In this document: one piece after another, positions 1 through 41,626 of the stretch
Numbering within the stretch: position 1 is the first letter of the stretch
Layout: each line of letters opens with the position of its first letter
Assembly: GCA_028717225.1 (NCBI GenBank)
Contig: JAQUOF010000001.1
Span: 30,322 to 94,321, forward strand
Source of the DNA: Patescibacteria group bacterium
Lineage (GTDB): Bacteria > Patescibacteriota > Patescibacteriia > UBA2591 > JAQUPP01
DNA: 64,000 bases
Direction of reading: 5' to 3'
Notes under the pieces: model-generated
Database searches by the model: none
The model's input: only the letters and a program-made list of their open reading frames with translations
Told to the model about the DNA's origin: nothing
Position numbers and translations under genes: made by a program

Positions 1-2050
1 CCTTATCAATAGATTCTGTGCCGATATCCAAATATAGTTTATTAATTTCCGATTCTTTCCAGGCCTTGATTCCTTCTGATTTTTTAACCAAAGATTCTTC
101 ACCTAATAAATCTATTTTTTCTTTTATTTTTTGGACGGCTTGTTCAGAACTGCCCCAACGTCGAAAATCCTGAAGGGTAACGCCCTGTAATTCTTCAATT
201 GGACCGGAAACGCGTGGAGTAACTTTAATTTCTTCCATTTTAGACATTGCCGGTTCGCGAGGCGGCCGATGAATAAAAATTTCCGCCTGAGGTTGAGGTT
301 TAATTTCTTTCTTGATTTCTTCAATTTTAGGTTCTTTAATAATTGGTTTAGGTTCTTCTTTGGGCAATTCTTTAATCGGCAGCTTAAATTTATCTTCCGC
401 GTCTTCGTCAAGAACAAAAAGTGAATCTTCTGCCGGCAATTGATCAAGTTCTTTTAAAACACCTGTAATTTCTTCCGGACCGGAAATTTCTTCTTTCTTT
501 AAAATTTCAACGGGTAAATCTGTTTTGGGTTTTTCAACAACCGCAGTAAATAAATTTGGCGCTGTTTTCTTATCCTCCGCAGCCTTAATAAAAGAGGGTT
601 CTTCAATTTTCTTTTCAAAAACAGGCGGAAGAACCGGTTTAATTTCCGGTATAACAGGTTGATTTTCTTTAATCTGTATGTCACCTTGTCCGCGTAAGTC
701 TGTGTTCTTGTCCGCGTAAGTCTGTGTCATGGGCTGAGGTTTTTTAATAATCGGTGCCGGTTGTTCTAAAACCGGTGTTTTCAATGTTTCTTGTTCAAAT
801 TTTTCTTTTAATAATTTCTCTTTTGTTTCTTCAGGTTGAGGAAGAAATTTTTCTTCTTCCATTTTAGGCAAAGAAGAAACCGGTTTTATTTCAGGAACTG
901 TTTTTTCCGCCGGTTTTTCCATTCGGGTAAATTTTTGAATTGTTTCTTCCGGCTGTTTTAATCCTTCAGCCAATTCAATTTGAGGAATATTGCCCATTGG
1001 TTCAACTTTAATCATTGGTTTTTCTTGTTTTAATATATCCATCACTTTATCAACTGTTGTTTCGTCCAATTCCACGCCGCCGATTTTTTGCGGCCTTTTT
1101 AAAACAATTCTTGTTTCAATTTCTCCGCGCACTTCTCTTAAATAAGAAAAGACGACATTTTTAAAACGTTTTTCCAATATTTCATCGGGAAAAGTCAAGC
1201 CAACCTTGGTAATCGCAGTGTCCACGGCTTGATTAATATTAATTGGCGGTGCCATAACTTGTTGTTTTTTTAATTTTTCAATTTCGTCGTCAAAACTTTT
1301 TAAAGGAGATATTTCCTCACTGCTTGAATTGGCTGTTTTGTTAATTTTGCGAGGCATTATGTCAACTAAACGATTATTTTGGATTATCTGAAGCGTGCCT
1401 TTGTCGGTAACGAAAGTTAAATCATCCGCAAAAGCTTGGGGAGACTTGGAATCAATTTTAAAATATTCATAAATGCCGAATAATTTTTCCAAAACCGCCC
1501 TATTTTGAGGGGATAACCCGGAAAGATGCTTCATAAAATATTCCGCTTGTTTTATATTACTAATCTCTTCCGCGCCCAAAATTTGATGATAATCATTAAG
1601 ATAATTGGCGATGGTTTTTCTGTTTTTCTCTTCCATCTCTTCGGGAAATAATATTTGATTGTTAGAATTTAAAGCATTCATCAATTCTTTTTTAATTGAA
1701 TCCCGACCCCAAGGATTGAAAGAAATAAGAGACGATTTTAATTGAGATAAAACCGGCAAATCGGAAATTTTCAAAGCTGCGGCTAAATTATATTGCAAAA
1801 AATCGGCGATTTCCTGAACATTTAATCTCTGCATGGCGACGCATTTTAATCCGCTGATTAAATCTTTATATTCTTCATTTAAATCAGGATCCAACTGGCT
1901 TCGGGATAAAGCTTTTTCCAAAGCTCCGGCCAATTGTTTGGCTTTTTTATTTTCTAAATAAAAAATAATCTCTTGGACTTCTTTTTGAAGTTCTTCCTTG
2001 AATTCCGGATTATTTAATTGTTCTGAATTAATTTGATCCTGATTAATCAT
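1..2050 (-). CDS. Hypothetical protein, partial (C-terminus beyond window start); Pro/Glu/Lys-rich central and C-terminal region
   Basis: ATG at 2048-2050 with no in-frame stop down to position 2; 12 bp downstream of the 908-aa membrane protein gene on the same strand; no recognisable catalytic motif; the tracked overlapping ORFs 124..447 and 499..684 are in other frames. Confidence 0.5.
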   Translation of the reverse strand, partial: MINQDQINSEQLNNPEFKEELQKEVQEIIFYLENKKAKQLAGALEKALSRSQLDPDLNEEYKDLISGLKCVAMQRLNVQEIADFLQYNLAAALKISDLPVLSQLKSSLISFNPWGRDSIKKELMNALNSNNQILFPEEMEEKNRKTIANYLNDYHQILGAEEISNIKQAEYFMKHLSGLSPQNRAVLEKLFGIYEYFKIDSKSPQAFADDLTFVTDKGTLQIIQNNRLVDIMPRKINKTANSSSEEISPLKSFDDEIEKLKKQQVMAPPININQAVDTAITKVGLTFPDEILEKRFKNVVFSYLREVRGEIETRIVLKRPQKIGGVELDETTVDKVMDILKQEKPMIKVEPMGNIPQIELAEGLKQPEETIQKFTRMEKPAEKTVPEIKPVSSLPKMEEEKFLPQPEETKEKLLKEKFEQETLKTPVLEQPAPIIKKPQPMTQTYADKNTDLRGQGDIQIKENQPVIPEIKPVLPPVFEKKIEEPSFIKAAEDKKTAPNLFTAVVEKPKTDLPVEILKKEEISGPEEITGVLKELDQLPAEDSLFVLDEDAEDKFKLPIKELPKEEPKPIIKEPKIEEIKKEIKPQPQAEIFIHRPPREPAMSKMEEIKVTPRVSGPIEELQGVTLQDFRRWGSSEQAVQKIKEKIDLLGEESLVKKSEGIKAWKESEINKLYLDIGTESIDK
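685..728. repeat. Perfect tandem duplication of a 22-bp unit (CTTGTCCGCGTAAGTCTGTGTY) inside the partial CDS
   Basis: Units 685-706 and 707-728 differ only at the last base; locally GC-rich; the two copies are read in different frames (TQTYADK vs TDLRGQG). Confidence 0.7.
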
Positions 2051-2062
2051 GGGTTAAAATGT

Positions 2063-4789
2063 TTAAGGTTTTGGTCTTTTAATTAATCCTGCTTGTATTT
2101 TAAGCTCATCAATAAATTCCTTAATCAATTTTGCCTGATCTTTAGGTACACCCGGTATACCATTTTCTATTTCTTTAGTATAAGCTGCCATTTGTTGTAA
2201 TACACTTTCAGTGGTTAATCTTTTCAGAGTATCGGGTCTGATTCTCTGAATTTGTCTTATATCAAGTTCCTGAACAGTATCTAAATATTTTTTTCCGGCA
2301 TTATGTAAAGAGGCGCCCTTACCAAATTGATCTTCGGTTATTAAAGTATCAGCATGTAAACCCCTCATCATATTTTGCGGCTCTACCTGATTCATTTTTG
2401 CGACAGTTACTCTTGCCCATTGATCATCTATGTCTAAATTGCCCTTTGCTAATTCTTCTTTGTTTACTCCTCCAATTTTAGCCATACCTGTTACCGAATC
2501 AATTGTAGCCATACCGGCCATTTGATGCTGGCCTGCCATAGCGCCAATAGAGCCCACTCTTGATATTGCTCGGCTGGTTTCCATATCGCCAAGGCGAGCC
2601 ACGTCTTTAAATATATGTTCAAAAAAATCCTTAACAGCTACCGGATTAACAGGATTTTTTTCAAAAGACGCAACAGCGTTTTCTCCGCCATTTGATCCAT
2701 ATTCCGAAGTGCCATATTTTTTAGCCAATATCTTTTTTGTTTCCGCCTGAATATAAGGATCTAACATTAAAGTATTTGTGCCGTTAACCTTGGCTAACAT
2801 TTCTATTGCCGCAATTAATTTATCTTCATCTTTGGTTACTAAAGCTTTTTTAACTTCTTCAACCAATAATGTTTCTTCGCCGCCGGTTGTCAACTGCAAT
2901 TCTTTTTGTTTTTCCGCCTGTCTCTGTCTGGCTCCATATTCAGCCAAAGGCGTTCTTTCTTGTTCTCTGCCCAAAGATCCATAAGTATTATATCTTAAGG
3001 CAGAAATTTTTTGAGCATATTCATTACTTTCTTTTAAAAGGTCAAGTTGAGTTTTTTCTCTATCACCCAATTCTTGTTTTTTTGTGTCTATTTCTTTATT
3101 TTCTTCCGGTTCTTTATTTTGCATCCAATGTGCTAAATCCCGTCGCCCCGTGGATGTGTTAAAATCATACCTCTCGCCAGTCTCTCGTTGGCACCAATTA
3201 GCCATGGCTTCTAACTCAATTTTATCATCAGCTGTATTAGTACCATCCATAAGTTTACCAGAGAGTTCGTTTCTTCTTGCTAATGCATTTGTTAAATTCT
3301 CTATTACTATTTTTAAATTTTTCATTTCGTTATTATTTTTTGACATTTCATCATCTGCTGTTTTTTTCTTATCCGCTAATTCTTTTTGTTTACCCTTCGA
3401 TCCTGTTAATAAGTCTCCCACTTTTTTACCCCAATGGCCCGGATCCATCGCCTTGTCAATAGCTGTACCAAGCGGTCTTGATGCAAGCTCAATACTATCT
3501 TTTTCTCTCCTAATACTTTCTGCTTGACGCAATTTCCATGCCGCCACACCGGATTGAACACTTATACCCTCCCATTGTTTAGCACCAAACATTCGGCCAA
3601 CGCCTCTTGTGGTGTTTAATAATCCTTGATCAAGTTTCCTTAATCCTAATTTGCTCGCTCCGGAAGCAAAATTTTGCATTCCTTTCACTCCCTGACCAGC
3701 CAATTGCGAGCCGGCCACGCCGAGCTGTTGAGCAACCATTAAAGAGCCAACCAACATGGCAATGCCGATTATAAAATTCAAAACATATTGCGGTTGGCCG
3801 GTTTCAGAAATAGACGCCGCCAAATTTCCTTCGCCGGATGCTCCTTTTAATGCATCTTGGCCAATAGCAGTAGCTCTTTCTTCGGTAACCATTGTTTTAT
3901 ATATCGTGCCTCCCTGGTCTTGAACAACCGCCAAAGAAAGCCAAAGCATAAAAGCCATAGCCGGTCCGACGATCAATTCATTGGAAAATTTCTTCCACCA
4001 TTGATCAGCATGGCCCTTGCCCATTGGAAAAAGAGGAGCCACAAAAATCAAGGGCGAGAGAAGAATTAAAAACCAAAGCGTCACAATTCTCATTACTAAA
4101 ATTATTGTAATAATACCAATCACGAAAAGCGCCACTCCAACCATAATCAATCCCAGAATCAAAGCTCCAAAAACCTCAAAACCATTAATATCCGCACCGG
4201 TAATTGAATCTCTAAAAGACAATATTTTACTTAGTCCCAACATTTCAGCAAAATTTCCTTCTGCCGCCGTTTTGAAAGCATTAACAAAAGTCAGCATTAT
4301 AATTTGAGAAATATCAATCAAAAATCCGCAAATAAATTTTGAAAAGTTAACCAAAACCGCCGCCATTACCAATTTCCCTAAAAGTTTTTTGTAAGAATAA
4401 TTTTCAATTTTTAAAACCGTGCAAAAAGCGATTATTAAAAGAGCCAGGATAAAAGACATATTGCAGATGTCTCGGATAATAATCCATCCCTTAGAAACCG
4501 CCGGTGAATTTATAAAATCATTATATTGGGCAACCCAGACCAAAAGACGGATAATAACGATTAAAAGTTTCGCCAATACACTGATAAAGAAAAGAATCGG
4601 CCAGCTTAAAATTTGTAAAACCCCTGATCTTATATCTGACCCCGCTGATGACGCAGACATTGTTGCATCAACTTGTCCAACTTGCGCATTAACCTGATAA
4701 AAAGCGCAGAAAGACATAACTAAAACCAGCCCCAATAAAATGGGGATGATAATTTTCTTTTTTGTTGATATGCGGCGTAAAAAACGCAT
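2063..4789 (-). CDS. Large polytopic membrane protein, VirB6/TrbL-like (putative), with long hydrophilic C-terminal tail
   Basis: 908 aa; N-terminal signal-like segment, then about 6-8 hydrophobic helices in the first ~300 aa, then a ~600-aa charged coiled-coil-like tail; architecture resembles TrbL/VirB6 proteins with C-terminal extensions; assignment made by eye. Confidence 0.45.
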   Translation of the reverse strand: MRFLRRISTKKKIIIPILLGLVLVMSFCAFYQVNAQVGQVDATMSASSAGSDIRSGVLQILSWPILFFISVLAKLLIVIIRLLVWVAQYNDFINSPAVSKGWIIIRDICNMSFILALLIIAFCTVLKIENYSYKKLLGKLVMAAVLVNFSKFICGFLIDISQIIMLTFVNAFKTAAEGNFAEMLGLSKILSFRDSITGADINGFEVFGALILGLIMVGVALFVIGIITIILVMRIVTLWFLILLSPLIFVAPLFPMGKGHADQWWKKFSNELIVGPAMAFMLWLSLAVVQDQGGTIYKTMVTEERATAIGQDALKGASGEGNLAASISETGQPQYVLNFIIGIAMLVGSLMVAQQLGVAGSQLAGQGVKGMQNFASGASKLGLRKLDQGLLNTTRGVGRMFGAKQWEGISVQSGVAAWKLRQAESIRREKDSIELASRPLGTAIDKAMDPGHWGKKVGDLLTGSKGKQKELADKKKTADDEMSKNNNEMKNLKIVIENLTNALARRNELSGKLMDGTNTADDKIELEAMANWCQRETGERYDFNTSTGRRDLAHWMQNKEPEENKEIDTKKQELGDREKTQLDLLKESNEYAQKISALRYNTYGSLGREQERTPLAEYGARQRQAEKQKELQLTTGGEETLLVEEVKKALVTKDEDKLIAAIEMLAKVNGTNTLMLDPYIQAETKKILAKKYGTSEYGSNGGENAVASFEKNPVNPVAVKDFFEHIFKDVARLGDMETSRAISRVGSIGAMAGQHQMAGMATIDSVTGMAKIGGVNKEELAKGNLDIDDQWARVTVAKMNQVEPQNMMRGLHADTLITEDQFGKGASLHNAGKKYLDTVQELDIRQIQRIRPDTLKRLTTESVLQQMAAYTKEIENGIPGVPKDQAKLIKEFIDELKIQAGLIKRPKP

Positions 4790-4907
4790 AAAAATCAGCT
4801 TGTTAGAAATTAGCTTGTTAGCTTTTTAGGGTTTCCGGAGGTCTGACCTCCAACGAATTTTGCTTACCAACTTAGTTAGCTTATTTGCTTACCAGCTTAT
4901 TTGGTCT

Positions 4908-4945
4908 TGACAAAAGGCGAAAAATGTGATAAAGTATTATATAGT
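4908..4945 (+). promoter_or_regulatory. Sigma70-like promoter (TTGACA -35; extended TGnGATAAAGT -10 region) for the secreted CTD protein
   Basis: TTGACA at 4908-4913, roughly 17-bp spacer, A/T-rich -10; followed by strong SD AGGGGGAAAG before the ATG at 4979. Confidence 0.4.
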
Positions 4946-4978
4946 TGAACAATAACGTTTAACTCAATAGGGGGAAAG

Positions 4979-5866
4979 ATGAAAAGCTCTTTAAAAATTT
5001 TTTTAGTTATAGTTTCAATAGTATTTTCCAGTTCGATTTTTGGACAAACAGTTTGCGGTTGGGTTCCGATAGATTCAAGTAACGCATCTGAAGCACTGAA
5101 AAACAAATTGTCATATTATACGGGAAATTTTCGAGATCGTGGATTTACAAGAATCTCGGATGATCACAGCCCATGGAATAACAGTCAAAGTTCTATTGAA
5201 TTTGCCGACACCTCTACTTCCGGACATGGGTCAATGCTTTTTTCAAAAGCATTTAATCTGAACGTTGGCGATTCCTTCCGACTTTATCTTGACATAAAAG
5301 GTTCCCCTGCAGATTCTGTTTATATTGAATTATTTATGGTCTCAAATGGAAAATTCTATGAAGGTGGTTGTGGCTCCCATTTTTTGTCTACTGAGTGGAA
5401 ACAAGGGGTTGATTTTGGAACCTTTTTACCATCGGGGAATGGACCACGCGCAACAAGAATTGATACTGTAACCTTGGCTATCGTGTATAATTCTGATAAT
5501 CCTCAATTTCCTTTTAACGGCAAGTTTGATAATTTTACTTATAAAACTTGGAATAATGGAAATGAGGTGGTTTTGGACTCAATGGGAGAAAACCAAGCGG
5601 TGGAAGAGGAACATGGGACATTGAACATTGAACATGGAATAAAAGTTTTTCCAAATCCATTTTGCCAATCTTTACTGATTACCGGAGCATCGGATAAATC
5701 AGACATTAAAGTGTATGACAAAACCGGTAAACTGGTAAAATCAATTAATGATTTTACTTGGGATGGACGAGATGAAAAAGGAAATAAGTGTTCAAATGGA
5801 ATGTACTTCTTAAAGGTTAAGACAGAAAATAGAACTATAACTGAGAAAGTTTTGTTAATAAGATGA
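4979..5866 (+). CDS. Secreted protein with C-terminal T9SS-type sorting-domain-like (Por_Secre_tail / FlgD-Ig-like) module
   Basis: N-terminal signal peptide MKSSLKIFLVIVSIVFSSSIFGQ; C-terminal ~75 aa (VFPNPF...IKVYDKTGKLV...FTWDGRDEKGNKCSNGMYFLKVKTENRTITEKVLLIR) matches the classic T9SS CTD pattern. Confidence 0.6.
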   Translation: MKSSLKIFLVIVSIVFSSSIFGQTVCGWVPIDSSNASEALKNKLSYYTGNFRDRGFTRISDDHSPWNNSQSSIEFADTSTSGHGSMLFSKAFNLNVGDSFRLYLDIKGSPADSVYIELFMVSNGKFYEGGCGSHFLSTEWKQGVDFGTFLPSGNGPRATRIDTVTLAIVYNSDNPQFPFNGKFDNFTYKTWNNGNEVVLDSMGENQAVEEEHGTLNIEHGIKVFPNPFCQSLLITGASDKSDIKVYDKTGKLVKSINDFTWDGRDEKGNKCSNGMYFLKVKTENRTITEKVLLIR

Positions 5867-5882
5867 AAATAAGTTTCATCAC

Positions 5883-5912
5883 GGGGCAGGCCTAAAACCT
5901 GCCCTTTTTTTA
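5883..5912. terminator. Bidirectional intrinsic terminator between convergent genes
   Basis: GGGCAGG-loop-CCTGCCC hairpin followed by a T-run; sits between the stop at 5866 (+) and the stop at 5915 (-). Confidence 0.7.
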
Positions 5913-5914
5913 TT

Positions 5915-8900
5915 TTAAGGTATAATTTTAATCAATCCTTGAAATGAAACATTTGTTGTTTTTCCCCAATTGTCCGTAATTGAAACCTTTGGCTGGAAAC
6001 AACAAGCATTGGAACACCCGAATTTATTCCAACCCGAACCACCGGAGGCGCAAGAATAAATATGATTAAATTGAAAATAATTATTTGTACAAGCATTAGG
6101 AGTATCGCCAAAATTATCGCAAGTTAGATTATCAGCGCAACAAACCGGTTTATGATTTTTGGCCATTACCAAATATGGATTTGGCTGAATAACATCGCCC
6201 CAGTCAATGGTAATGTTGCGAATCGGCATTTGGTCTTTATCCGCCCAGGCATAAAATTTCAAAACCGCCAAATAAGATTGGGAACGAGTAATATCTTCAT
6301 TGTCAACATCGCCAATGGTTATTTTATCTAAATTACCGTTCTGACATTGACCTTTTTCAGTACAATTAACAGAAACAATTTGTGGACTTTTAATATCAGA
6401 TGGACTATTTAAACTTGTATTAGTTCGTTGATATGTATAATCTAAACCGGGATGTATTTCACAAATATCTCCCACATTTTTTCCAACACATGAACCCGTA
6501 GTGGAACAGGTAAGATTACCGCAAGTGTAATAAGTGGCCGGTTCTGAACAATCTTGACTGCTTAATTGGCAAGTATTATCCTTTTTTGGACCATCTTCAC
6601 AAATTCCATTTCCACATGTTCCTGCCATAAAACAATCATCGTCGGTTTTACACGAATGATTAGCCCCTGAACATATCCCAATACAATCATGAGAAATAAC
6701 AGATGTTTTCTCTCCACAATTTTCATCAGTTAAACAATTATTGTTTTGATTTAGACCGTCCTGACATTTCCTTTGACAAACACCGGGAAAAATATAATTA
6801 TAAATTGAATAAGATGTAGTAAAAAGTTTTTGTAAAGGGGTTATGGATGAATATATAGAAGATGAATCAACCATATTATCTCCGCAACCGCTGGCAGAAG
6901 TGATATAAGCTGATTGGTCCCAACTACCAAGTGCTCCCCAGGGCTGACATTGGGAATCAGTTTTATTATTTGCATCCATGGTAGTATATATTTTACTGTC
7001 TATTGGATCATTATAATAATTTTTAATATTATTTACTCTATTAGTAAAAGCTTTGGTCATATTTTGATCCTCCTCGTTAGCTATTTTTACAACTTGACCG
7101 CAACCTGTATTAAAATTTATAGTAATCCCTGCGACTCCAAATCCACCGTCATCAGCACTTCCATCACAGCTAGAAAGATTAAAACCAGTTAATTTATTAC
7201 TCTCGTCAAATAGAACCGTAATATCTACATAATCAGCGCCTTTTTTCCAGCTTGCTTTCCAATTAGGATTATTTGCCTTAATTGTTGTATTTGCATCCCA
7301 GCCGCTTCTATGCCCCAAACCACACCAGTCACTATCGCTTTTTAAATTAAAATCTATACTTGCAATATCATTTTTATAATAATTAAAAGTTTCTTCATAT
7401 GTCCATGTATCCGTACACGAAGGACAAGTCGGATTATCTCCATCATTTATATCATAACACTTGTACGCCAACCCTTCTCCCCACTGAGCACAGGAACCGC
7501 TAGCTGTTACGTCCTTGGCATTTGTAATTGGATTTGATTTTGCAGAAGGGATAATTTTTTTAGTACAATACCATTCTCTGTCATTGGCGGCTTGGTAACC
7601 GGCAGAAAGAAATTGATTATAAATATCCGGGTCGCCGGTTGGTTGTCCAGGCCACCAAGTAATACAAGCATTCACATCTGTTGGTTTTGACGGATCCGGT
7701 TCCAAACAAAAACCTCGCAAACCAATCGCGTTTGTTTTTTTAGTTAGAAGCGTCCAAGTATTCCCCGTAGCGGCGCTAGATTTGCCTTCACAACTTTCTT
7801 TGGTTGTATCTGAAGTTTCGCTGCCATTACTACCAATACAAATACTGTCTCCAGCTAAACTTTCTGAATTATAATATTTTGTCGTTCCGCCATAAACAGC
7901 CTTAGTATAGCTGCATTGGCAATCTTTTTGGTCGCCGGCCCCATTAGTAGCATCACTGCAAACATTAACATCAGAATAATAAGGCGCGCCTCCATTGGCA
8001 TTATTACCTTTGAATGGAGAATCTTTTTCCGGATAAGCTCGGCAGGTTTTGGCAATTGTAAGTTTTGCTAAATCAGTTGAACTTATAATGCTATCTGGTT
8101 GTATCGATGATTTAAGTTTGATTCCGTTAACTCCATAAACATCTCCCAGAGCATTAACATAACTTAATCTATAACCCAAATTATTATTTGCATCTACATA
8201 TTCCTTGGCTGTTAATCTTTCAATCGGATACATATTATAAATTGAGTGTCCGGCATAATCCATTCCGCTCCAAGAAACATCTCGGTCTTGATATATATTT
8301 TCAGTTAAAACCGCCGGGTTCTGTTCCCAAATTAAATGTCCGCATTGATTTGTGTTTCCGCTGCCGATTAATTTATCGCAACGTCCAACTGCTTCGCAAA
8401 TATCTTTATAAGAACCGCTGTTTGTATCCCATTCGGAACGCGAGCTGGTGCAAGTAAGCCATTCGCCGCAAGTTCTATCTTGTCGCACTTTGAGAATTAT
8501 ATTCGCGTCATTTGTGGTCTGGCCGTTTGGTAAACAATATTTTGTGTAATCTTCACTACCTTCTTTTGCGCAATTAACCGGCGAAACTAATTCATATTTT
8601 GGATTAGTCGCTTCTGATTTTTTATAAGTGGCAAAAGTATTATAAGTAGCCGAACCCTGGCTGTTATCTAATAAAAGAATACAGCCTTGTTTTTGTGAAA
8701 CATTTCCTTGGCAAGAAGATTGATCTAATTTTCCGTCATCAAGATAATAATATGGTTGAGGCGTGAATTCAATAATTTGTAAATTATCTACATTAACTTT
8801 ATCATTATTGCCTTGCGTATCATCCGCAATAACAAAAATTCTTAAATTTGTAACATTGGAATCTACTTTTTCATATCGCCAGGCCGAGAACCATTCATTT

Positions 8901-11900
8901 TTAGTATGACTATTATTAAATTGATAATTACCATTTATAGTGGTATGGCAATGAGCAATATCAGAATTTCCGCTTTCTCCGCATTTTCCATTTTCATTGG
9001 CTGTTAAGGCCTGAAAATGAAGTTGCCAGCTCCCTTTTAAAGTTCCGGGAATTTTTATATTTCCAAAAAGATAAAAATATCTTGGATATGGTTTTGGATC
9101 AATTTTAATATCTTGACTAACTAAACCAACCCAGTCGCTTCCGTTCGCGCTAATTTGCAGACCCTTCTTGCCGTCAACATAATCATCAATAGGATTTAAT
9201 ATAACGCCGTTGCATGTTTCCTGATAACCTTGACCGGGAGGACAATCATTTAACCAATAAGTTTTACCTTCTTCAAAACTTCCATTAGTAACCATATTGG
9301 TTAAAGTTCCCACGCTTTCGGTAAATTGCGTGCAACCGGTTTGATTCTGCGGACATAAACCGGCTTTTTCATAGCCAGTTTCAGTGCTTGTTTTAATTCC
9401 ATAAATGCCGTTAAGAAGATATGGAGTTTTATTAGTATTGTAATAACAGGGCTGATCGGTTCCTTTGGTGAACCAACCGGTTATATTGTCCCCGCCTGAC
9501 AAACTCACTTTTTCGCGATATTCGCAAAGATTTTCGCCCGGGTCTTTGAAATAAACCGAGCTGCCCGAACCGCTGATATTGTATTCTTCGCAGCCGGTAT
9601 TCGCGCTGTCGCAAAGAATCTTGGTGGAATAATTATCCGGATTATTTTTTAAATATAAATCAGACCAACCGGTTACCGTGTCTGTAGCAGAAAGAGTCGG
9701 CAAACCAAATCTTTGACAGCCCTTGTTTGTTTCTTGGCAAGATTTTTTGGAATCATTAATCAGATAAATCGGGCTATCGGCCGAGACGGTTATTCCGCTT
9801 TTAAATGTTTCAGCAAACGGAGAAGCAGAATTTTGAGTGTCAATTAAAGCTTCGCAACCGACTGATTTTTCGTTACAAAGACGGGCAAATGAAGCCAGAT
9901 ATTGAAGTTTATTATTTTGATCTTTATAGGCCTGGCAACCCGGGACGGTGCAATTGAGAGGTGTCATTTTTGTAACCCAAGAATTTTTAATTAAATTCAA
10001 ATCATCTTTGACTTCTTTTAAAATAATATTGTCAATATAATAATTTCGATAAGCAGTAGAGATAATTAATTTTTCATCAGAACCGACTTCTCGATCAAAA
10101 TAAACAGGTCCTAATTTTATTTCTCGCCAATTTTCATCCGGAGATAAAGTTGAGCCGATAAGAAGGGAATCTTTTCCGGCCGCTGAGAAATCAGCCCTCC
10201 AAGTTCCCCTGCCTTTAGCCCAAAAAGAAATAATATAGGATTTACCTTGGGTTACCAAACCAGAAGCCGCATATTCAATCGCTTTTACTTCAGAAATAAT
10301 TTCCATTGAATAACCATCTTTATTCACTGACTCATTAGAAGGTCTTCCGCCAATCCAACCTTGATTTCCATCTTCAAAATCACTTTTTAAAACTTGTTTA
10401 ATATTATTGGCCGCGCTGCCTTTGTATTCTCGGCAGCCGACATTGGCTTTGTTGCAAGAAATGCTTTCATTTGGAATAGCTTGATAAATACAATTTCCAT
10501 TTTCCCATGTTCCACGGCTGGCCGTACATTTGTCTGCGGTAAAATTAACCGAAGGAGTTTTCCTTAAAGAAGAACAACTATCAGAACAAGTAATTGTATT
10601 TTCATAAATACGATAACTTACTTTTCCATCTGCGTCATAGAATTCTTTGCAATGAGGATCTGTTAAATCTTCCGGTCCGTTACAATTAGCTCCTTCTAAA
10701 GCAGAATTCACTTTTTCTGGACCATCATCTTCTGATTTTAAATAATATTTTTTTAATTGATAACCATTTGTGTCTGAACCAACCCAAGTGTAATAATAAC
10801 CGCAAGCATCGCTTGGTTTTTGGCATTTTCTAATATAAGAATAATATTGTATGCCTTCGCCGCCTTTTACCACTTCATCCAAATTGGTGAATTCTTCGCA
10901 GCCAGGTGCGGAACAAGAAGTAGCCAAAGAAGGAATCAGCAGCACATCAGGCTGTTCAGTTTCAAAATTAGTCTTCATTTCTTTAAAATAATTCGCTCCA
11001 ACGCATTTTTCCGAGCAGCGATTTTTTTCAGAAACAATTCCCGGTATGATCGGATCATTATTGATCGGGGTGTATAATCCGCAACCGACATCTGCTGATG
11101 AACATTTTTTGGCAAAATTATCGCATTCCGGATTATCAGGATTAGTATTACAACCCATCCAAATTGGCGCGGTTTTTAAATAAATTTTATTGTTTGAACC
11201 GTAATCTTTATAAGGTGAAGGAGTTTTTCCAATTTCAAATTGAGTATTATCAAGCAATATTTCTCCGGAATAATCAGTGGTAATTAAATAAATTCTGGTT
11301 ACTTTGGCTTGACCGGTGGGGTCAGTATTATGGTAAGTGCAAACAGTTCGTTGCCATTGATTTTTATTAGTAGTAGGCAATGAACAGTCAAAAAGAGGAT
11401 CATGCCATTCACCTTTTCCATCCGTACCTTGCATATAAATTTTAAAACTTCCACTGGTGTAACTGTTTACTTTTGACCAAACACTGGCAGTAACATATTC
11501 ATCCGGTTGAACTATTATATTAACGCCTTGTCCTGCGCCAGATTTGCAGGCATCGCAAGGTGTTTGCGCGCAAGTACATCCCAAACTGACCTTAATAGCT
11601 TTACTGCCGGATAATTTATCAGCATCAATTAATGAATAACCCTTCCAATATGGATCCCATCCGTCAGCTCCATTGTCTTTGAGAATGCCGCTTTCAAAAC
11701 CTCCATTCGGTGCTAAATTTGTGCCTAAATCAAGGGCGGTTCTGATATATTCATGACAACCCTCTGTGCTGGCATCGCATTTTTCAACATTGCGATTAAA
11801 GAAAATAGCATTTTTGGAATTATCAGTCGTAACGTATTTTCCGTCATTATCTTTTTCATATGACACTCCCGGACTTTTGCAAGCCCAAATATCTTTGCCT

Positions 11901-14338
11901 CCGGTTGCCAATCCCTTGCCGTAATCCGCACAATACCATTTACAACCGATATCACTGGCGTTGCAATTGGCAAAATTTAAAGTATCGGCCAAATAAGAAT
12001 AACTTTTATTGTCGCTGGTTCGTTTATAAGTTTGGCAAGTATTAAATTGACCATTGCAAGAATTTCCGCCCGCTCGCCAAATATTTTTTTCTCTGGTGCA
12101 GTAACCCCAAGTATCGCATTTTCCGTTTGCGTCTTCATGAATACAATCTTTCATATCAACGCAAGTTTCTTGGCGTTGGCTGGAACCGGGCAAAGGAATG
12201 GCTGAATAAGCAATGGTTTCGCATTGAAAAGACGGAGCTTTTAAAACCCAATTCGGATCAACCAAATGACAAAAAGGCGAGGCTTTTTGCCAAGTTGATC
12301 CTGTTGCAACCTTCTTGGTTGTATTACAATCTAAATCAGAACTCACTTTATCAAACCCATCAACAATATCTTTTAAAGTAAATTGGGCATCGCCTAATTC
12401 ACCGTCATAAATTTTTTGAGCCGCGATTTCCAAACCTAATGGAAAAACTCTGATCGCGCGCAATTTTTTAATATTAGTCAAACTGTAACGATTTAAATAA
12501 TCAGTGGCTGCATCTTTTTTGCTTCGTCCGCTAATCAGCCAATCCGGATGGATTAAATTTTTATCCATTGCTTGTTTTAAGGTCAGATTTTCTTCAAGCG
12601 CTCTGACTATTCCCGAATCCATCACGCAGTTGCTTGGCAACGCATATTTTGGATCTTGCGGACAAACCGAGTATTCGTCATAAATTGATATTTCTCCGCC
12701 CTTTTTCAAAGAAGCCACGGTTAAATCGGCGAAAAAAGATTCGCCACCGGTGCTTAACGTGGTTACTCCTCCGTTTACGTTTAAAAACGGCTCTGATCTG
12801 GGCGCCCATGGAGCATAATTCCAATTAAAACCTTTTTCAAAAATTTGATTTAAAAGTTTGCTTGTTAGAGTGCTGGTAAATATGCCAATCGCGTCAGCCG
12901 CGGCCACGCCGGTATATTGCATCGGACTGGCTTCGCCTTTTTCCACCACCTGACGAGTTGCTTCGCTTACCAAAGTGGAAGGCGTTTTGGTTAAGCCGGA
13001 AATTTTAGTCGTCACATCATTCATTCTGCCCTGGAGAGATTGAAAATATTTTGAATTGGTTATCGCCGTGGTTTGCTTATTCATTAAGTTAGATTGAAGT
13101 TCTAAGGTAACTCTTAAATCATTGTCTTCCGAAAACATTCTCCCTATATCTTCCAAAGTAGCTTGTTCTTTAGCGGTTATGGCCGTAAAGTTGGTCTTTT
13201 TAATCATGTCTTCTAATGTTGTTGTCCAAACCACCAATTGTTTAACATAGAGATTGGCACGCTGAGTATATGCAAGAGCATTAACATAACCGACATATTG
13301 TCTGTCTTTTTCCTCGCAATCCTTATCCTTTAAATTCGCCGTCAATCCTTTGCATTCAAAGTATGAGCAATCCGTAGGACTGACATTGCCAATCGCCAGA
13401 CACTCCTGATTAGAACAAAAATCTTGCTGCTTTTTAGCCGCGCAAACTGACGTATTTTTTTGCCAATATTTCAAATATGCCAAATCATTTTCATTATCTG
13501 GCGTACCCCAAACTATTTTATTAATTAATTTCTGAAATCCTTCTTGGGTAGGCAGTGTCATTAAAGAATCTTTATTGTCAGTTTGAAGAGCTTCAACCGT
13601 TTTAGAAAATTCATCTTGAACTTCAACGATATTTTGAGCGATATTTTTTAATGCATCTACGCGATTCTTTCCACCTATCCATTCTTTATTTCCCTCAGAC
13701 TTATCCGGCCATTGTTTTAATACCGAATCTGCTTCAAGAATATCTCTAAAACTGGATTTATATCTGCCAACCGGGCCCTCTTTAAAATCTATAGAAAATT
13801 CAATTAAATTTTTCTGCTGCGCTTCGCTTATTCTTTGTTTTATTTTTGAAAAAGAACAATGAGTTTCCTGTTTCCAAACTTTCTTTTGATAAACCGGATC
13901 AAAAGAAATTAAAATATTTAAACGAAGAGTCGGATCAATCGGATCGCACAAACTTTGCGTAAAAAATCCGGTAGCTCTGGCCGCCGAATCAATAAATTCA
14001 CCCAACATATCATCGCCCATTGCGGTCCAATAATCAGGACTGGAAATAAATAACGGGCTTTGACCCTTGCCTCCGCCGGCCACCCATTCGGCAGTTTGCG
14101 TGGCTATTGTACTGGTATAAGAATTAATCGCGTTTCTGTAGGCAACTCCCGCGCCTTCTGCCCAAGCTTTTTTCAAATATTCCCAAACTTTATCCCAAAT
14201 AAATTTGGGCCAATCTTCAACCGGTACTGCCTGAGCTTGTTTTGGATAAAATAAAACCGGAGTCGCTATTGATAAAAACATTACCAATAAAACCGCCCCG
14301 GCCATTACTTTAAATTTAATTTGTTTTTTAAAATCCAT
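5915..14338 (-). CDS. Giant (2807 aa) secreted cysteine-rich surface protein with several CBM4/9-like (NGGFE-type) beta-sandwich modules
   Basis: Signal peptide MDFKKQIKFKVMAGAVLLVMFLSIATPVLFYPKQAQA; several hundred Cys in CxxC / Cx(n)C modules; repeated NGGFESG / NGSFEEG / DFEDGNQGW motifs typical of CBM4/9 domains; one uninterrupted ORF. Confidence 0.8.
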   Translation of the reverse strand: MDFKKQIKFKVMAGAVLLVMFLSIATPVLFYPKQAQAVPVEDWPKFIWDKVWEYLKKAWAEGAGVAYRNAINSYTSTIATQTAEWVAGGGKGQSPLFISSPDYWTAMGDDMLGEFIDSAARATGFFTQSLCDPIDPTLRLNILISFDPVYQKKVWKQETHCSFSKIKQRISEAQQKNLIEFSIDFKEGPVGRYKSSFRDILEADSVLKQWPDKSEGNKEWIGGKNRVDALKNIAQNIVEVQDEFSKTVEALQTDNKDSLMTLPTQEGFQKLINKIVWGTPDNENDLAYLKYWQKNTSVCAAKKQQDFCSNQECLAIGNVSPTDCSYFECKGLTANLKDKDCEEKDRQYVGYVNALAYTQRANLYVKQLVVWTTTLEDMIKKTNFTAITAKEQATLEDIGRMFSEDNDLRVTLELQSNLMNKQTTAITNSKYFQSLQGRMNDVTTKISGLTKTPSTLVSEATRQVVEKGEASPMQYTGVAAADAIGIFTSTLTSKLLNQIFEKGFNWNYAPWAPRSEPFLNVNGGVTTLSTGGESFFADLTVASLKKGGEISIYDEYSVCPQDPKYALPSNCVMDSGIVRALEENLTLKQAMDKNLIHPDWLISGRSKKDAATDYLNRYSLTNIKKLRAIRVFPLGLEIAAQKIYDGELGDAQFTLKDIVDGFDKVSSDLDCNTTKKVATGSTWQKASPFCHLVDPNWVLKAPSFQCETIAYSAIPLPGSSQRQETCVDMKDCIHEDANGKCDTWGYCTREKNIWRAGGNSCNGQFNTCQTYKRTSDNKSYSYLADTLNFANCNASDIGCKWYCADYGKGLATGGKDIWACKSPGVSYEKDNDGKYVTTDNSKNAIFFNRNVEKCDASTEGCHEYIRTALDLGTNLAPNGGFESGILKDNGADGWDPYWKGYSLIDADKLSGSKAIKVSLGCTCAQTPCDACKSGAGQGVNIIVQPDEYVTASVWSKVNSYTSGSFKIYMQGTDGKGEWHDPLFDCSLPTTNKNQWQRTVCTYHNTDPTGQAKVTRIYLITTDYSGEILLDNTQFEIGKTPSPYKDYGSNNKIYLKTAPIWMGCNTNPDNPECDNFAKKCSSADVGCGLYTPINNDPIIPGIVSEKNRCSEKCVGANYFKEMKTNFETEQPDVLLIPSLATSCSAPGCEEFTNLDEVVKGGEGIQYYSYIRKCQKPSDACGYYYTWVGSDTNGYQLKKYYLKSEDDGPEKVNSALEGANCNGPEDLTDPHCKEFYDADGKVSYRIYENTITCSDSCSSLRKTPSVNFTADKCTASRGTWENGNCIYQAIPNESISCNKANVGCREYKGSAANNIKQVLKSDFEDGNQGWIGGRPSNESVNKDGYSMEIISEVKAIEYAASGLVTQGKSYIISFWAKGRGTWRADFSAAGKDSLLIGSTLSPDENWREIKLGPVYFDREVGSDEKLIISTAYRNYYIDNIILKEVKDDLNLIKNSWVTKMTPLNCTVPGCQAYKDQNNKLQYLASFARLCNEKSVGCEALIDTQNSASPFAETFKSGITVSADSPIYLINDSKKSCQETNKGCQRFGLPTLSATDTVTGWSDLYLKNNPDNYSTKILCDSANTGCEEYNISGSGSSVYFKDPGENLCEYREKVSLSGGDNITGWFTKGTDQPCYYNTNKTPYLLNGIYGIKTSTETGYEKAGLCPQNQTGCTQFTESVGTLTNMVTNGSFEEGKTYWLNDCPPGQGYQETCNGVILNPIDDYVDGKKGLQISANGSDWVGLVSQDIKIDPKPYPRYFYLFGNIKIPGTLKGSWQLHFQALTANENGKCGESGNSDIAHCHTTINGNYQFNNSHTKNEWFSAWRYEKVDSNVTNLRIFVIADDTQGNNDKVNVDNLQIIEFTPQPYYYLDDGKLDQSSCQGNVSQKQGCILLLDNSQGSATYNTFATYKKSEATNPKYELVSPVNCAKEGSEDYTKYCLPNGQTTNDANIILKVRQDRTCGEWLTCTSSRSEWDTNSGSYKDICEAVGRCDKLIGSGNTNQCGHLIWEQNPAVLTENIYQDRDVSWSGMDYAGHSIYNMYPIERLTAKEYVDANNNLGYRLSYVNALGDVYGVNGIKLKSSIQPDSIISSTDLAKLTIAKTCRAYPEKDSPFKGNNANGGAPYYSDVNVCSDATNGAGDQKDCQCSYTKAVYGGTTKYYNSESLAGDSICIGSNGSETSDTTKESCEGKSSAATGNTWTLLTKKTNAIGLRGFCLEPDPSKPTDVNACITWWPGQPTGDPDIYNQFLSAGYQAANDREWYCTKKIIPSAKSNPITNAKDVTASGSCAQWGEGLAYKCYDINDGDNPTCPSCTDTWTYEETFNYYKNDIASIDFNLKSDSDWCGLGHRSGWDANTTIKANNPNWKASWKKGADYVDITVLFDESNKLTGFNLSSCDGSADDGGFGVAGITINFNTGCGQVVKIANEEDQNMTKAFTNRVNNIKNYYNDPIDSKIYTTMDANNKTDSQCQPWGALGSWDQSAYITSASGCGDNMVDSSSIYSSITPLQKLFTTSYSIYNYIFPGVCQRKCQDGLNQNNNCLTDENCGEKTSVISHDCIGICSGANHSCKTDDDCFMAGTCGNGICEDGPKKDNTCQLSSQDCSEPATYYTCGNLTCSTTGSCVGKNVGDICEIHPGLDYTYQRTNTSLNSPSDIKSPQIVSVNCTEKGQCQNGNLDKITIGDVDNEDITRSQSYLAVLKFYAWADKDQMPIRNITIDWGDVIQPNPYLVMAKNHKPVCCADNLTCDNFGDTPNACTNNYFQFNHIYSCASGGSGWNKFGCSNACCFQPKVSITDNWGKTTNVSFQGLIKIIP

Positions 14339-14457
14339 ATTTTATTTCTTAATTTTGAATTTTAAATAATTTCTATAATTCAAAATATAAATATCAACAA
14401 CTATTCAATTTTTATTTTCCTAATAAGCTAAAAAGCTACAAGCTAATAAGCTTTTAT

Positions 14458-15174
14458 TTACTGCCCTTGTTGCTGGGCTGATTGCAAAAACATCAATTTT
14501 AAAGTTTCGTCGTCTATTTTATTTAATATTTCCTGATCTGCGCCCTGAGTAATTAAAATTTGGCGCAATTGATTTATATCCAAATCAGAAAAATCGCCCG
14601 AAGTAGTATTCGGCGTTGCTATTGTTTCCAAATCTATTCCTGTTTCTGCCTTAGTTTCATTATATAACTTCTGAAGAGTTTCGCTATCAAGCTTATCCAC
14701 AACATCACGAGCCAGACCGCCTTTATCCACAAGTAAATCACGAATTTTTTGAACAGATTCATTAGTTAAGTTGGGGGCCGGATTTAAGGTGCCGGTACTG
14801 GGGCTGGAAAATGTTTTTTCCAAATTATTTTCACTGCCTGTTGCCAATTTGTTAAGCGGAGTTGAATTTAAATTTAAGGGATCGGAACCGGCGTCCACTT
14901 CTTGCTTGTCAGAATATCCGTCGCTGTCAGAATCAGTCAAATAAGCCGAAGTTCGGTATTTAAATTGTTCGTCAAAATCAGAAAGGCCGTCATGATCCGT
15001 GTCAACAACTTTTAAGCCGGTCAAAACTTCTTCTTGGGTTAATGATTTTGGTTTGGAATAACTAATAAAAGGAGCATAAATTGCCCCTTTTATTTTTAGA
15101 AAACCAAGAGTAACGGCGCCAATGCCGATTAAGATAAAAAAAACTATAATAAAAGTATTTTTATTCTGCGGCAT
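14458..15174 (-). CDS. Membrane-anchored protein with two dockerin-like / EF-hand-like Ca-binding loops and C-terminal helical repeats
   Basis: N-terminal TM helix (FIIVFFILIGIGAVTLGFL); DTDHDGLSDFDE and DSDSDGYSDKQE are 12-residue DxDxDGxxDxxE loops; C-terminal repeats xxKxDxETLxxL; 4 bp downstream of ksgA and directly upstream of the giant gene on the same strand. Confidence 0.6.
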   Translation of the reverse strand: MPQNKNTFIIVFFILIGIGAVTLGFLKIKGAIYAPFISYSKPKSLTQEEVLTGLKVVDTDHDGLSDFDEQFKYRTSAYLTDSDSDGYSDKQEVDAGSDPLNLNSTPLNKLATGSENNLEKTFSSPSTGTLNPAPNLTNESVQKIRDLLVDKGGLARDVVDKLDSETLQKLYNETKAETGIDLETIATPNTTSGDFSDLDINQLRQILITQGADQEILNKIDDETLKLMFLQSAQQQGQ

Positions 15175-15178
15175 GAAA

Positions 15179-16039
15179 TTAATTTTTAATTTTATTAGCT
15201 AACTCTATCCAATTTTCAATTGATAATTCCTGCGCTCTGGATTTTAAAGAAAGATTTGTCTGAGATAAAATATTTTCACTCTCTTCCTTGTTTACTATAC
15301 CACTTTTTACCAAATTATTCAAGAGGTATTTTCGCGGCGAAGAAAAACCCGCCCTGACGATTTGGAAAAATTTTTCTTCATCAATATTATTAGTAATTCG
15401 TATATTTGTACTTGATTCGTAATTCGTAATAGGCACAATTTGTAAAATTGCACTGTCAACTTTTGGTTTTGGCCAAAAATTTTCTTTTGAAATTTTAAAA
15501 ATCTTTTTTACTTTACTGTAAAATTGAACCGAGATCGCCAAAAGATTCATTTTGGGCGGTTTAGCTAGAATGCGCTCTCCGACTTCTTTTTGGAGGATTA
15601 GAGTTATTGATTTTGGTTTTATTTTTTGACTTAAAAATTTTCTTAAAACCGCGCTGGTAATATTAAAAGGCAAATTCGCCACAACCTTGTAATCATTGAA
15701 ACATTTTAACATTATAGCATCACAGCATTTTGAATCTAAAATATCACCGGAAATAATTTCAATATTTTTATAATCCTTTAATCTATTTTTTAAAACTTCA
15801 ACTAATTTCTTGTCAATTTCCACAGCAAAAACTTTTTTTACTTTTTTTGCTATTTCTTGGGTTAAAATTCCAAGTCCGGCACCGATTTCTATCACATAAT
15901 CTGAACTTTCCAAATTAGCCGCGTCTAATAATTTATTTATCGTTTCTTGATTAATTAAAAAATTTTGTCCTCTTCTTCTCAAAGGTTGAATTTGATATTG
16001 AGAACAAATTTCTTGTGTTTCTGTTTTAAGCGACATCAA
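15179..16039 (-). CDS. rsmA: 16S rRNA (adenine1518/1519-N6)-dimethyltransferase RsmA/KsgA
   Basis: RRGQNFLIN and IEIGAGLGILT SAM-binding motifs; start abuts the leuS stop. Confidence 0.9.
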   Translation of the reverse strand: MMSLKTETQEICSQYQIQPLRRRGQNFLINQETINKLLDAANLESSDYVIEIGAGLGILTQEIAKKVKKVFAVEIDKKLVEVLKNRLKDYKNIEIISGDILDSKCCDAIMLKCFNDYKVVANLPFNITSAVLRKFLSQKIKPKSITLILQKEVGERILAKPPKMNLLAISVQFYSKVKKIFKISKENFWPKPKVDSAILQIVPITNYESSTNIRITNNIDEEKFFQIVRAGFSSPRKYLLNNLVKSGIVNKEESENILSQTNLSLKSRAQELSIENWIELANKIKN

Positions 16040-22189: not shown

Positions 22190-23080
22190 TTAAATCTTAA
22201 AAAGATTTTTAAGATAAACTGGCAGAGCGAAAATCGCCTGATGGATTTTCGGACAATACCATTTTAAATTTTTCACCTTGCGTTCTTTTAATCTTTTCTG
22301 AATAATTTCATTTTTTATTTTTGTTGCGTCAATATAATTGCTGTTGATGCTAAAAGCCATTAAAGATCCATATAAAGGAATATATGAGACAAAAACAGAA
22401 GAAAACTTGAAAACAGATTTTAAATTTTTATAAATCCATTTTGACAATTCCGGCCGAGTGGTCGCCAAATCCAAATGCGTCATAAAAATGCCGTTTTTCT
22501 CCAATTTTGAAGAAATTTTCCGGTAAAAACTTCTTGTATAGAGTGCTTTTGACGGGCCGATCGGATCGGTTAAATCGGAAATAATCAGATCAAATTTTTC
22601 TTTTGTTTCTTCCACAAATTTTTTGCCGTCACCGACAATAATTTCAACTTTGGGATTTTTAAATGAATTTTTGTGAATAAATTTTAAATATTTTTTGGAA
22701 AAATCAATTACTTCTTGGTCTATTTCCACCATTATCACTTTCTTAATTGAATAATGCGATAAAACTTGCCGCAAAATTCCGCAATCTCCGCCACCGATAA
22801 TCAAAACTTTTTTCGGGTTGGGATGCGAAAACAGAGCCGGTTGTGTCATTGCTTCGTGATAAAAAAATTCGTCTTTTTCCGAGGTCTGAAAATAGCCGTC
22901 CAGTTTCAACAATTTACCCAACCATGGCGTTTCATAAAGTTCAATTTTTTGGTACTTGGTTTTGCCTTTATAAATAAGCTTGTCATAAGCAAAACCATAA
23001 GCATAATTATAATTCGCTTTTTTGCCTTCAAGAATTTTTCCTGTTGGATGAAATTCAAATGTATATTTTTTTTCTTTCAT
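22190..23080 (-). CDS. speE: Spermidine synthase (aminopropyltransferase), stand-alone
   Basis: VLIIGGGDCG motif, proximal/distal aminopropyl-binding regions, ~296 aa. Confidence 0.85.
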   Translation of the reverse strand: MKEKKYTFEFHPTGKILEGKKANYNYAYGFAYDKLIYKGKTKYQKIELYETPWLGKLLKLDGYFQTSEKDEFFYHEAMTQPALFSHPNPKKVLIIGGGDCGILRQVLSHYSIKKVIMVEIDQEVIDFSKKYLKFIHKNSFKNPKVEIIVGDGKKFVEETKEKFDLIISDLTDPIGPSKALYTRSFYRKISSKLEKNGIFMTHLDLATTRPELSKWIYKNLKSVFKFSSVFVSYIPLYGSLMAFSINSNYIDATKIKNEIIQKRLKERKVKNLKWYCPKIHQAIFALPVYLKNLFKI

Positions 23081-23268
23081 ATAATAATTCTCTCTCTTAT
23101 AGTAAAATTTGTCTGAACGAAATCGCGGAAAAGCCTTAGAAAATTAAGGAGTTTTATTGAAAAATTCATCTGTCTGACGACCTATTCGGGAGGAGTTATG
23201 AATTTTTCAGAATAAAGCGAGTATAATTTTCAAGGATTTGGAGCGTTGAGTGAAAGTAAATTTTACTA

Positions 23269-41621: not shown

Positions 41622-41626
41622 AATTT

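Follow-up and report, generated by a model that had tools for sequence, protein, structure and literature searches.

Why should a bacterium that presumably has one membrane carry the sorting domain of a secretion system whose parts are mostly outer-membrane proteins (PMC5445135)? The question is raised by a 64-kb stretch of DNA (hereafter the window) from a Patescibacteria group bacterium, in which a 295-residue secreted protein (4979..5866, plus strand; NCBI MDD5625571.1) ends in a module resembling the C-terminal domains (CTDs) of type IX secretion system (T9SS) cargo. The NCBI annotation pipeline (PGAP) calls it 'T9SS type A sorting domain-containing protein [Patescibacteria group bacterium]'; T9SS CTDs are routinely taken as proof of T9SS cargo and the pipeline names proteins accordingly. 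Here the label falls on a domain that has multiplied and appears to be under selection, in a phylum for which neither a T9SS nor an outer membrane is expected. We find that the domain is a genuine T9SS type A-class CTD, and we favour, at somewhat better than even odds, the reading that it was captured and exapted for a retention or adhesion role after export in a one-membrane lineage of the candidate phyla radiation (CPR).

The tail of the 295-residue protein (residues 221-295; 5639..5863, plus strand) is assigned to this class by profile scores, a structural model and structure searches. The protein reaches 42.0 bits (E = 7e-11) against TIGR04183, which has a cutoff of 23; 39.7 bits against PF18962 (Por_Secre_tail, gathering score 27) over residues 223-292; and 34.8 bits against PF13860 (FlgD_ig, cutoff 27). 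It fails the type B/C CTD models (TIGR04131, 19.2 against 35 bits; NF033708, 13.8 against 40 bits), and the FlgD equivalog models give it 12-25 bits against cutoffs of at least 230, only the immunoglobulin-like (Ig-like) domain of FlgD being matched. One other open reading frame (ORF) of the window bears such a module, a 480-residue secreted PQQ-like β-propeller protein (43916..45358, plus strand; NCBI MDD5625604.1). In both proteins the CTD stands at the extreme C terminus, ending in LLIR and VIR, respectively, before the stop codon, and a hydrophobic N-terminal signal sequence can be read from the sequence; no further CTD-bearing ORF was found in the window. The last two strands of T9SS CTDs have been described as carrying PxGxYVV-like and KxxxK-like motifs (PMC5445135). 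The corresponding segments are SNGMYFLKV and EKVLLIR in the 295-residue protein and ASGIYFCQ and LKLTVIR in the propeller protein, and the motif G and Y are invariant across a 24-sequence CTD alignment.

The fold, which we modelled for the 295-residue protein, agrees with this assignment. Predicted alone with AlphaFold2 from the 24-sequence alignment, the CTD is an all-β sandwich with a predicted local distance difference test score (pLDDT) of 84.4. Its best Foldseek match in the PDB is 8glk_D, the CTD of the cargo NucA bound in the T9SS translocon, and further matches include the CTDs of PorZ (5m11, TM 0.75), PorU (6za2) and RgpB (7pq4, 5ag8), translocon-bound cargo (8gl8_D, 8gl6_D), the CTD of mirolase (8qb1) and FlgD. 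A profile of the 24 CTDs matches PorU, PorZ, RgpB and the cargo CTDs 8glk_D and 8glj_D from cryo-electron microscopy over its full length, whereas it matches FlgD structures at central positions 19-76 only (E = 2.5e-9), which places the tail in the T9SS type A class rather than among merely generic Ig-like domains. A word-index homologue search with the CTD alone returned no candidates.

The original prediction, made from the sequence of the window, held that both secreted proteins end in a T9SS-type CTD, and this is borne out, both ORFs existing as described. It proposed a check of the two tails against TIGR04183 and PF18962, in which they part company: the 295-residue protein passes both models, and the propeller tail (residues 403-480; 45122..45355, plus strand) lies under the curated cutoffs (TIGR04183, 17.5 against 23 bits; FlgD_ig, 16.8 against 27 bits). 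We nevertheless take this diverged tail, which is shortened before the last strand, for the same kind of domain, because it scores 59.8 bits (E = 8e-18) against a hidden Markov model (HMM) of 125 CTDs from the Fibrobacteres-Chlorobi-Bacteroidetes (FCB) group, a set retrieved with seeds that included this tail; because the relatives P0007, P0008 and P0009 (47, 44 and 41% identity), which have the same propeller-plus-tail architecture, reach 35.7, 42.8 and 49.7 bits against TIGR04183; and because the PNP, Y..G, W.G.D..G and SG.YF positions and the terminal basic residue are retained in the alignment. NCBI starts the propeller gene at a GTG at 43751 (535 residues), whereas the ATG at 43916 is favoured by its signal peptide, by the 465-480 residues of its relatives and by other gene callers.

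The propeller protein also resembles the outer-membrane assembly protein BamB, at scores far short of the family cutoffs (TIGR03300, 46.1 against 285 bits; NF008351, 37.5 against 423 bits). Judged by these scores the resemblance is generic PQQ-propeller similarity and no evidence of an outer membrane, and we dropped that idea. Downstream, at 45423..47080 (minus strand), lie two overlapping ORFs of glycosyltransferase family GT4 (191 and 376 residues) that are almost identical over some 115 N-terminal residues, which looks like a partial tandem duplication; a short-plus-long GT4 pair also follows the propeller gene in the relative L176. Beside P0007, at 11912..16580 of L087 (GCA_028690995.1), two proteins of 1121 and 423 residues match DUF5018, DUF6242 and dockerin domains and have no CTD. 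We take DUF5018 and DUF6242 to be mostly Bacteroidota surface-protein domains, and these neighbours hint that further surface-protein genes have come from FCB bacteria.

The setting of the two genes is that of a CPR bacterium. NCBI lists identical proteins under 'Patescibacteria group bacterium', and the same organism label stands on LeuRS, FtsH and the neighbours of MDD5625571.1. Both CTD genes lie within one 124-kb contig, where CPR-type genes flank them, and the content of the window is CPR-like, with TrmB-type regulators, a LysM-CHAP hydrolase, a PilT-like ATPase, a 2807-residue Cys-rich protein and many ORFs that belong to no family. None of the ORFs of the window matched a Pfam or NCBIfam family for T9SS components or outer-membrane biogenesis, and a survey of the window and about 150 kb of relatives' loci was negative for the T9SS, Bam, Lpt, Lpx, Tol and OmpH families. 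One of the relatives' loci carries a gene for an LCP ligase (LytR_cpsA_psr), an indirect sign of a single-membrane envelope. The Patescibacteria are described as a monoderm phylum (PMC11665869), and T9SS genes as absent outside the FCB phyla, in which they may occur (PMC11285876). At the level of the window, then, the organism label and the absence of any T9SS or outer-membrane family match among the ORFs uphold the earlier suggestion of a reduced, probably monoderm genome.

The surroundings of the 295-residue gene point the same way. By gene content and order, it is embedded with conserved synteny in an MPF_FATA-like type IV secretion system (T4SS) locus of monoderm type, without an outer-membrane core; such a locus is described for Patescibacteria (PMC12102498). 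Positional orthologues of the protein (P0002 and P0003 at 72-76% identity, P0147 at 40%) occur in loci that recur, sample after sample, in independent assemblies of NCBI, JGI, ENA and Logan, each time on the opposite strand between a protein of 900-1000 residues with hydrophobic N-terminal segments and a CBM_4_9 giant of 2700-2900 residues. In relatives one flank carries VirB4 (DUF87/P-loop_TraG), a TraC-like protein, PrgI (VirB3-like) and a T4SS pilin, and the other a TSP3-repeat protein, KsgA and LeuRS. The two immediate neighbours in the window are a 908-residue protein with hydrophobic N-terminal segments (2063..4789, minus strand), which matches no family, lies beside the PrgI, TraC-like and VirB4 genes in relatives and is by its position and hydrophobic segments a candidate VirB6/PrgH-like component; and the 2807-residue Cys-rich giant (5915..14338, minus strand), a secreted protein with a CBM_4_9 domain and a conserved neighbour of the 295-residue gene. 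The minus-strand genes at 1..18619 of the window form the distal end of the locus, with a truncated protein of 633-743 residues at 1..2044 and, beyond the giant, a TSP3-repeat protein and then KsgA and LeuRS, and the VirB4, TraC-like, PrgI and T4SS pilin genes of the relatives L082, L085 and L091 map just beyond the left end of the window.

When this locus is compared with that of a relative on a 640-kb contig (GCA_028716665.1), identity is 89.5% for the TSP3-repeat protein, 81% for KsgA and 63% for the giant protein, and it falls to 42% for the 908-residue membrane protein and 40% for the CTD protein. The CTD protein is therefore among the fastest-evolving genes of its locus. The giant and membrane proteins likewise diverge much faster than their housekeeping neighbours.

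The 295-residue protein is one of a family. Among 1.84 billion proteins its homologues form ten representative clusters, all of 260-355 residues and all composed of the same N-terminal domain (N-domain) and a CTD. The members named by NCBI are again each a 'T9SS type A sorting domain-containing protein', four of them in Patescibacteria metagenome-assembled genomes (MAGs) and one in an 'Omnitrophica' MAG. A metagenome scan with a six-sequence family alignment yielded one further orthologue (L097), the other matches being to the CTD only, and no exact DNA match of the gene was found among GTDB species genomes. Some members (P0150, P0151 and P0153) mark a second paralogue locus, whose flanks carry a large Peptidase_S74 protein, cupredoxin-like proteins, Pth, Der, a LytR_cpsA_psr ligase, a type IV pilin and Wzy_C. 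Around positions 2100..12500 of three contigs (L093, L094 and L096) this locus is rich in small cupredoxin-like proteins, in four-helix-bundle proteins of the 23S_rRNA_IVP type and in very large proteins containing Peptidase_S74, together with a Y1 (IS200-type) transposase, which suggests a variable surface-protein island.

The contig from the MAG labelled Candidatus Omnitrophica (L095, GCA_028716625.1) is syntenic with the Patescibacteria-labelled L093 and L096 over Pth, Der, LytR_cpsA_psr and the pilin, and this shared gene order makes wrong binning of a CPR contig the probable explanation of its label. The contig encodes a 560-residue Peptidase_C11 protein that ends in a short-loop Por_Secre_tail. 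At least three unrelated passenger types thus carry CTDs in the lineage: the orphan domain of the 295-residue family, PQQ propellers and a C11 peptidase. The comparison with other CPR CTD proteins that the original prediction had proposed therefore turned up multiple carriers, namely P0007-P0009, the second paralogue locus and the C11 protein.

Many of these CTDs share a shortened form. The domain measures 75 residues in the 295-residue family, against a median of 87 in the FCB sample, and the loop between the YD..G..V strand and the W.G motif, which has 7 residues in the 295-residue protein, has 7-9 in its family, in P0007 and in the C11 protein, that is, in three passenger types. In FCB CTDs the loop has a mode of 16 residues and is of 10 or fewer in 0 of 91. 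P0008, P0009 and the propeller protein of the window keep the long loop, the last of these being shortened before the final strand instead.

The 295-residue protein itself has four parts: a signal sequence, a domain of about 190 residues, an acidic linker and the 75-residue CTD. The predicted Sec-type signal peptide (residues 1-22; 4979..5044, plus strand), read by eye as MKSSLKIFLVIVSIVFSSSIFG and followed by Q, with cleavage predicted between IFG and Q, is kept across the family, in which a CGW following it is also conserved. In most members Gln follows the predicted site (between FG and Q), and the 908-residue neighbour has VNA followed by Q; the arrangement resembles the Bacteroidetes 'Q-rule', by which substrates of signal peptidase I reportedly obtain a pyroglutamate N terminus. 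The N-domain (residues 23-197; 5045..5569, plus strand) is an orphan with no Pfam, NCBIfam or PDB relative: its family profile found nothing significant in the PDB or Pfam (the top match, a CBM21 chain, has E = 0.19), and a comparison with the CBM-like repeats of the giant neighbour, a relationship we had considered, showed no similarity. A single-sequence AlphaFold2 model of the whole protein was unusable (pLDDT 43), and the N-domain is here described only as β-rich.

Directly upstream of the CTD lies the conserved linker VVLDSMGENQAVEEE (5570..5614, plus strand), with the family motif DSxGE..A.EE. Across 12 sequences, down to 27% identity, D200, S201, G203, E204 and E210 never vary and E209 hardly does. 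The motif, which occupies the place of the PorU cleavage site in T9SS cargo, is confined to this family: the exact motif was not found elsewhere, and because DSxGE[NS]Q.. is absent outside the family we gave up the idea of a linker-plus-CTD cassette common to other passengers. The gene runs opposite to both neighbours and has its own promoter-like site (TTGACA, 17 nt, TAAAGT, with a TG extension; 4907..4935, plus strand), found by a consensus scan in which such sites are no more numerous than in shuffled sequence and therefore only suggestive, and a terminator-like hairpin followed by a T-run (5883..5905, plus strand).

Where did the domain come from, and is it doing anything? A scan with the CTD alignment over one genome per species (185,579 species) gave 503 confirmed relatives. 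The best 80 of these 503 all come from FCB-type lineages, at 27-39% identity, and none from Patescibacteria; they include Cloacimonadales, WOR-3, Marinimicrobia, KSB1, Stahlbacteria, Ignavibacteria, Zixibacteria, Calditrichaeota and similar groups. The gene has a GC content of 35.6%, against 35.2% for the window, and is therefore not a recent import. The ratio of non-synonymous to synonymous substitution rates (dN/dS, Nei-Gojobori), taken over three close orthologues of the 295-residue protein, is 0.16-0.20 in the CTD and 0.37-0.49 in the N-domain; in the propeller protein, compared with an 85% identical orthologue, it is 0.07 in the CTD and 0.14 in the propeller. On these small samples, which agree for two unrelated passengers, purifying selection acts on the CTD; this indicates that the domain does something and argues against inert baggage.

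We therefore propose, with a probability of roughly 0.55, that a T9SS-class domain was captured and exapted in a one-membrane CPR lineage for post-export retention or adhesion. The CTD class was probably captured from diderm bacteria of the FCB group, the home of its closest relatives, and would then have spread within the lineage onto unrelated passengers, in many copies with a shortened loop. In a cell with a single membrane the N-terminal Sec signal peptide alone should suffice to place the protein outside, so that the CTD could not be an outer-membrane translocation signal; and since purifying selection would keep it all the same, it would have to act after export. We suggest that it is a compact Ig-like module that may hold fast-evolving passengers at the cell surface or on a partner cell, and that the CTD proteins would belong to the surface apparatus encoded around the T4SS locus. 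The earlier claim that the CTD is unlikely to be a T9SS cargo signal accordingly stands in part: the genuine CTDs, the monoderm phylum, the T4SS locus and the purifying selection speak for it, and the absence of Por genes extends over the window and about 150 kb of relatives' DNA.

Several points weigh against this proposal. The absence of T9SS and outer-membrane genes rests on 64 kb and on phylum-level literature; the phylum assignment is the submitters' label, and the MAG of one relative carries an Omnitrophica label. The dN/dS values come from about 75 codons and few, non-independent pairs, and against the more distant L091 orthologue the CTD shows no better conservation than the N-domain (39 and 42% identity). 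The CPR CTDs form no clear clade, each being about equally close to FCB and to other CPR CTDs, so that the data fit one capture followed by shuffling as well as several captures; a CPR-specific CTD clade, which we also considered, is unsupported, best-match scores to the two groups being similar.

There is an outside chance that the CTD is instead an active address label in a one-membrane cell, read either by PorV and PorU of an FCB host or by an undiscovered CPR sorting system. The second of these versions, which takes up an idea of the original prediction, supposes a CPR-specific sortase-like or PorU-like system that recognizes and cleaves the CTD and attaches the passenger to the wall, an S-layer or a glycopolymer. 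Several unrelated passengers carry the CTD, always at the extreme C terminus; the acidic linker is strongly conserved just where T9SS cargo are cleaved; the CTD appears to be under purifying selection; and a gene for an LCP-family ligase (LytR_cpsA_psr) lies near the second paralogue locus, all of which would fit. We consider such machinery rather unlikely, given that neither the window nor the surroundings of any locus examined contain a sortase, a C25-type peptidase or another candidate processing enzyme, and that the linker motif is limited to one passenger family and missing from the propeller and C11 proteins.

A further reading is that of a neutral relic, in which the CTDs arrived with genes transferred from FCB bacteria and persist as inert folded baggage. 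Such a history would account for the FCB affinity of the closest CTDs (best 80 of 503), for the occurrence of PQQ propeller plus CTD architectures outside the lineage (P0023, P0024, P0055 and P0103, by Pfam), for the drift of the propeller-protein CTD below curated cutoffs and for the deletions in CPR CTDs. It is unlikely in view of the selective constraint, with dN/dS of 0.07-0.20 in the CTD and thus below that of the passenger domains in two independent families, and of the canonical motifs and terminal position still present at 27-40% identity; moreover, the CTD sits on an orphan N-domain without FCB counterpart, and GC content is fully ameliorated.

The other version of the address label turns the signal outwards: CTD proteins of an epibiont would dock on PorV and PorU/PorZ of an FCB host and tether the passenger, even covalently, to the host surface, a step for which the sortase of the host itself would be used. 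The closest CTDs come from Cloacimonadota, WOR-3 and similar phyla (best 80 of 503), the 295-residue gene sits in a T4SS locus, and the passenger and the neighbouring surface proteins evolve fast, at 40-42% identity where KsgA has 81%. T4SS genes are essential for epibiotic growth of one Saccharibacteria strain, as cited in PMC12102498. This case is purely circumstantial, and we hold it to be quite improbable: contacts between CTD and PorV normally arise during translocation and not from outside the cell, the contact surfaces may be lost with the shortened loop, and identity to any FCB CTD is only 27-39%.

That the proteins are ordinary T9SS cargo, in a lineage that is diderm or encodes a T9SS elsewhere, is highly improbable. 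The genome is seen through 64 kb only, the CTD has all canonical features and the MAG of one relative bears the name of a diderm phylum, Omnitrophica; against this, Patescibacteria are described as having a monoderm envelope (PMC11665869) and T9SS genes are reported from no phylum outside the FCB group (PMC11285876), the survey of the window and about 150 kb of relatives found none of the T9SS, Bam, Lpt, Lpx, Tol and OmpH families, the T4SS has no outer-membrane core and the 'Omnitrophica' contig is syntenic with Patescibacteria-labelled ones. An assembly or binning artefact, by which an FCB contaminant or chimeric join would have entered a CPR bin, might be suspected from MAG data with closest CTDs from FCB bacteria (best 80 of 503) and is effectively refuted by the position of both genes inside a single 124-kb contig among CPR-type genes, by the recurrence of the gene order in independent assemblies (NCBI, JGI, ENA and Logan) from different samples and by a GC content equal to that of the window.

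Elsewhere in the window, at 22190..24336 (minus strand), a spermidine synthase gene adjoins a gene for a fused AdoMet decarboxylase-spermidine synthase-like protein (355 residues). At 41226..42370 (plus strand) a gene for HypA, a hydrogenase/urease nickel metallochaperone, precedes one for a ParA/NUBPL-type P-loop ATPase, in a window without a hydrogenase gene.

Part of this picture was already available: NCBI annotates the 295-residue protein, and orphan TIGR04183 domains have been reported in Poribacteria (PMC3909097), the only precedent in a literature search that returned no paper on T9SS or CTDs in CPR/Patescibacteria. What is new is the monoderm setting, the multiplicity of carriers together with the selective constraint, the short-loop variant and the fixed place inside a T4SS locus. 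If captured and exapted CTDs are indeed what we see, a match to TIGR04183 alone cannot show that an uncultured lineage has a T9SS or is diderm, and the CTD fold would function apart from translocation, which bears on the role of the domain before or beside the T9SS. The CTD would further mark a small group of rapidly evolving surface proteins beside a T4SS; since at least one CPR bacterium cannot grow as an epibiont without its T4SS genes, the members of this group would be candidate factors of host contact and might also hint at which host is involved. Should the CTD turn out to be an address label, a T9SS signal domain would be a transferable module, read differently in different types of envelope.

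Four known systems serve as points of comparison. The Ig-like domain of FlgD (PF13860) shares the central W.G.D..G..V..G.Y motif, which aligns to FlgD structures, whereas the PNPF strand at the start of the CTD and the K..L.K strand at its end match T9SS CTDs only. Unlike FlgD, moreover, the CTD is terminal on secreted passengers and has no flagellar context, the window being without flagellar genes. The CPR T4SS locus of PMC12102498 shares with the surroundings of the 295-residue gene VirB4, a TraC-like protein (possibly TrsD), PrgI (VirB3) and a polytopic membrane protein; the CTD-bearing and giant CBM-containing neighbours are not among the components listed in the available excerpt of that source, and on gene order the CTD protein has a positional link, and no more, to T4SS function.

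With the type A CTDs of FCB bacteria the resemblance extends further, to scores over the curated cutoffs for the 295-residue protein, terminal position, the Sec signal peptide, the motifs PNPF, YD..G..V, W.G.D..G...SG.YF and the K..L.[KR] end, and the Ig-like β-sandwich; propellers and cysteine peptidases are typical passengers of T9SS cargo, too. In cargo proper, PorU removes the CTD, and the passenger is set free or joined to anionic LPS. Unlike FCB cargo, the proteins described here come from Patescibacteria MAGs of a monoderm phylum in which T9SS genes are unreported, no T9SS gene occurs in the DNA examined and the 295-residue gene lies inside a T4SS locus. Many copies of the lineage are also about 12 residues shorter than FCB CTDs (75 against 87), with loops of 7-9 instead of about 16 residues.

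The closest precedent in kind is that of the Poribacteria, for which orphan TIGR04183 domains were reported in 2014 in a phylum without structural Por/T9SS genes, the pathway being left open (PMC3909097). There, as here, Por-type C-terminal sorting domains stand on secreted proteins of repeat or propeller type. The Poribacteria, however, are diderm, and their proteins still need some route across or into an outer membrane, whereas in the lineage described here there is probably no outer membrane, and the CTD would therefore be no outer-membrane signal of any kind.

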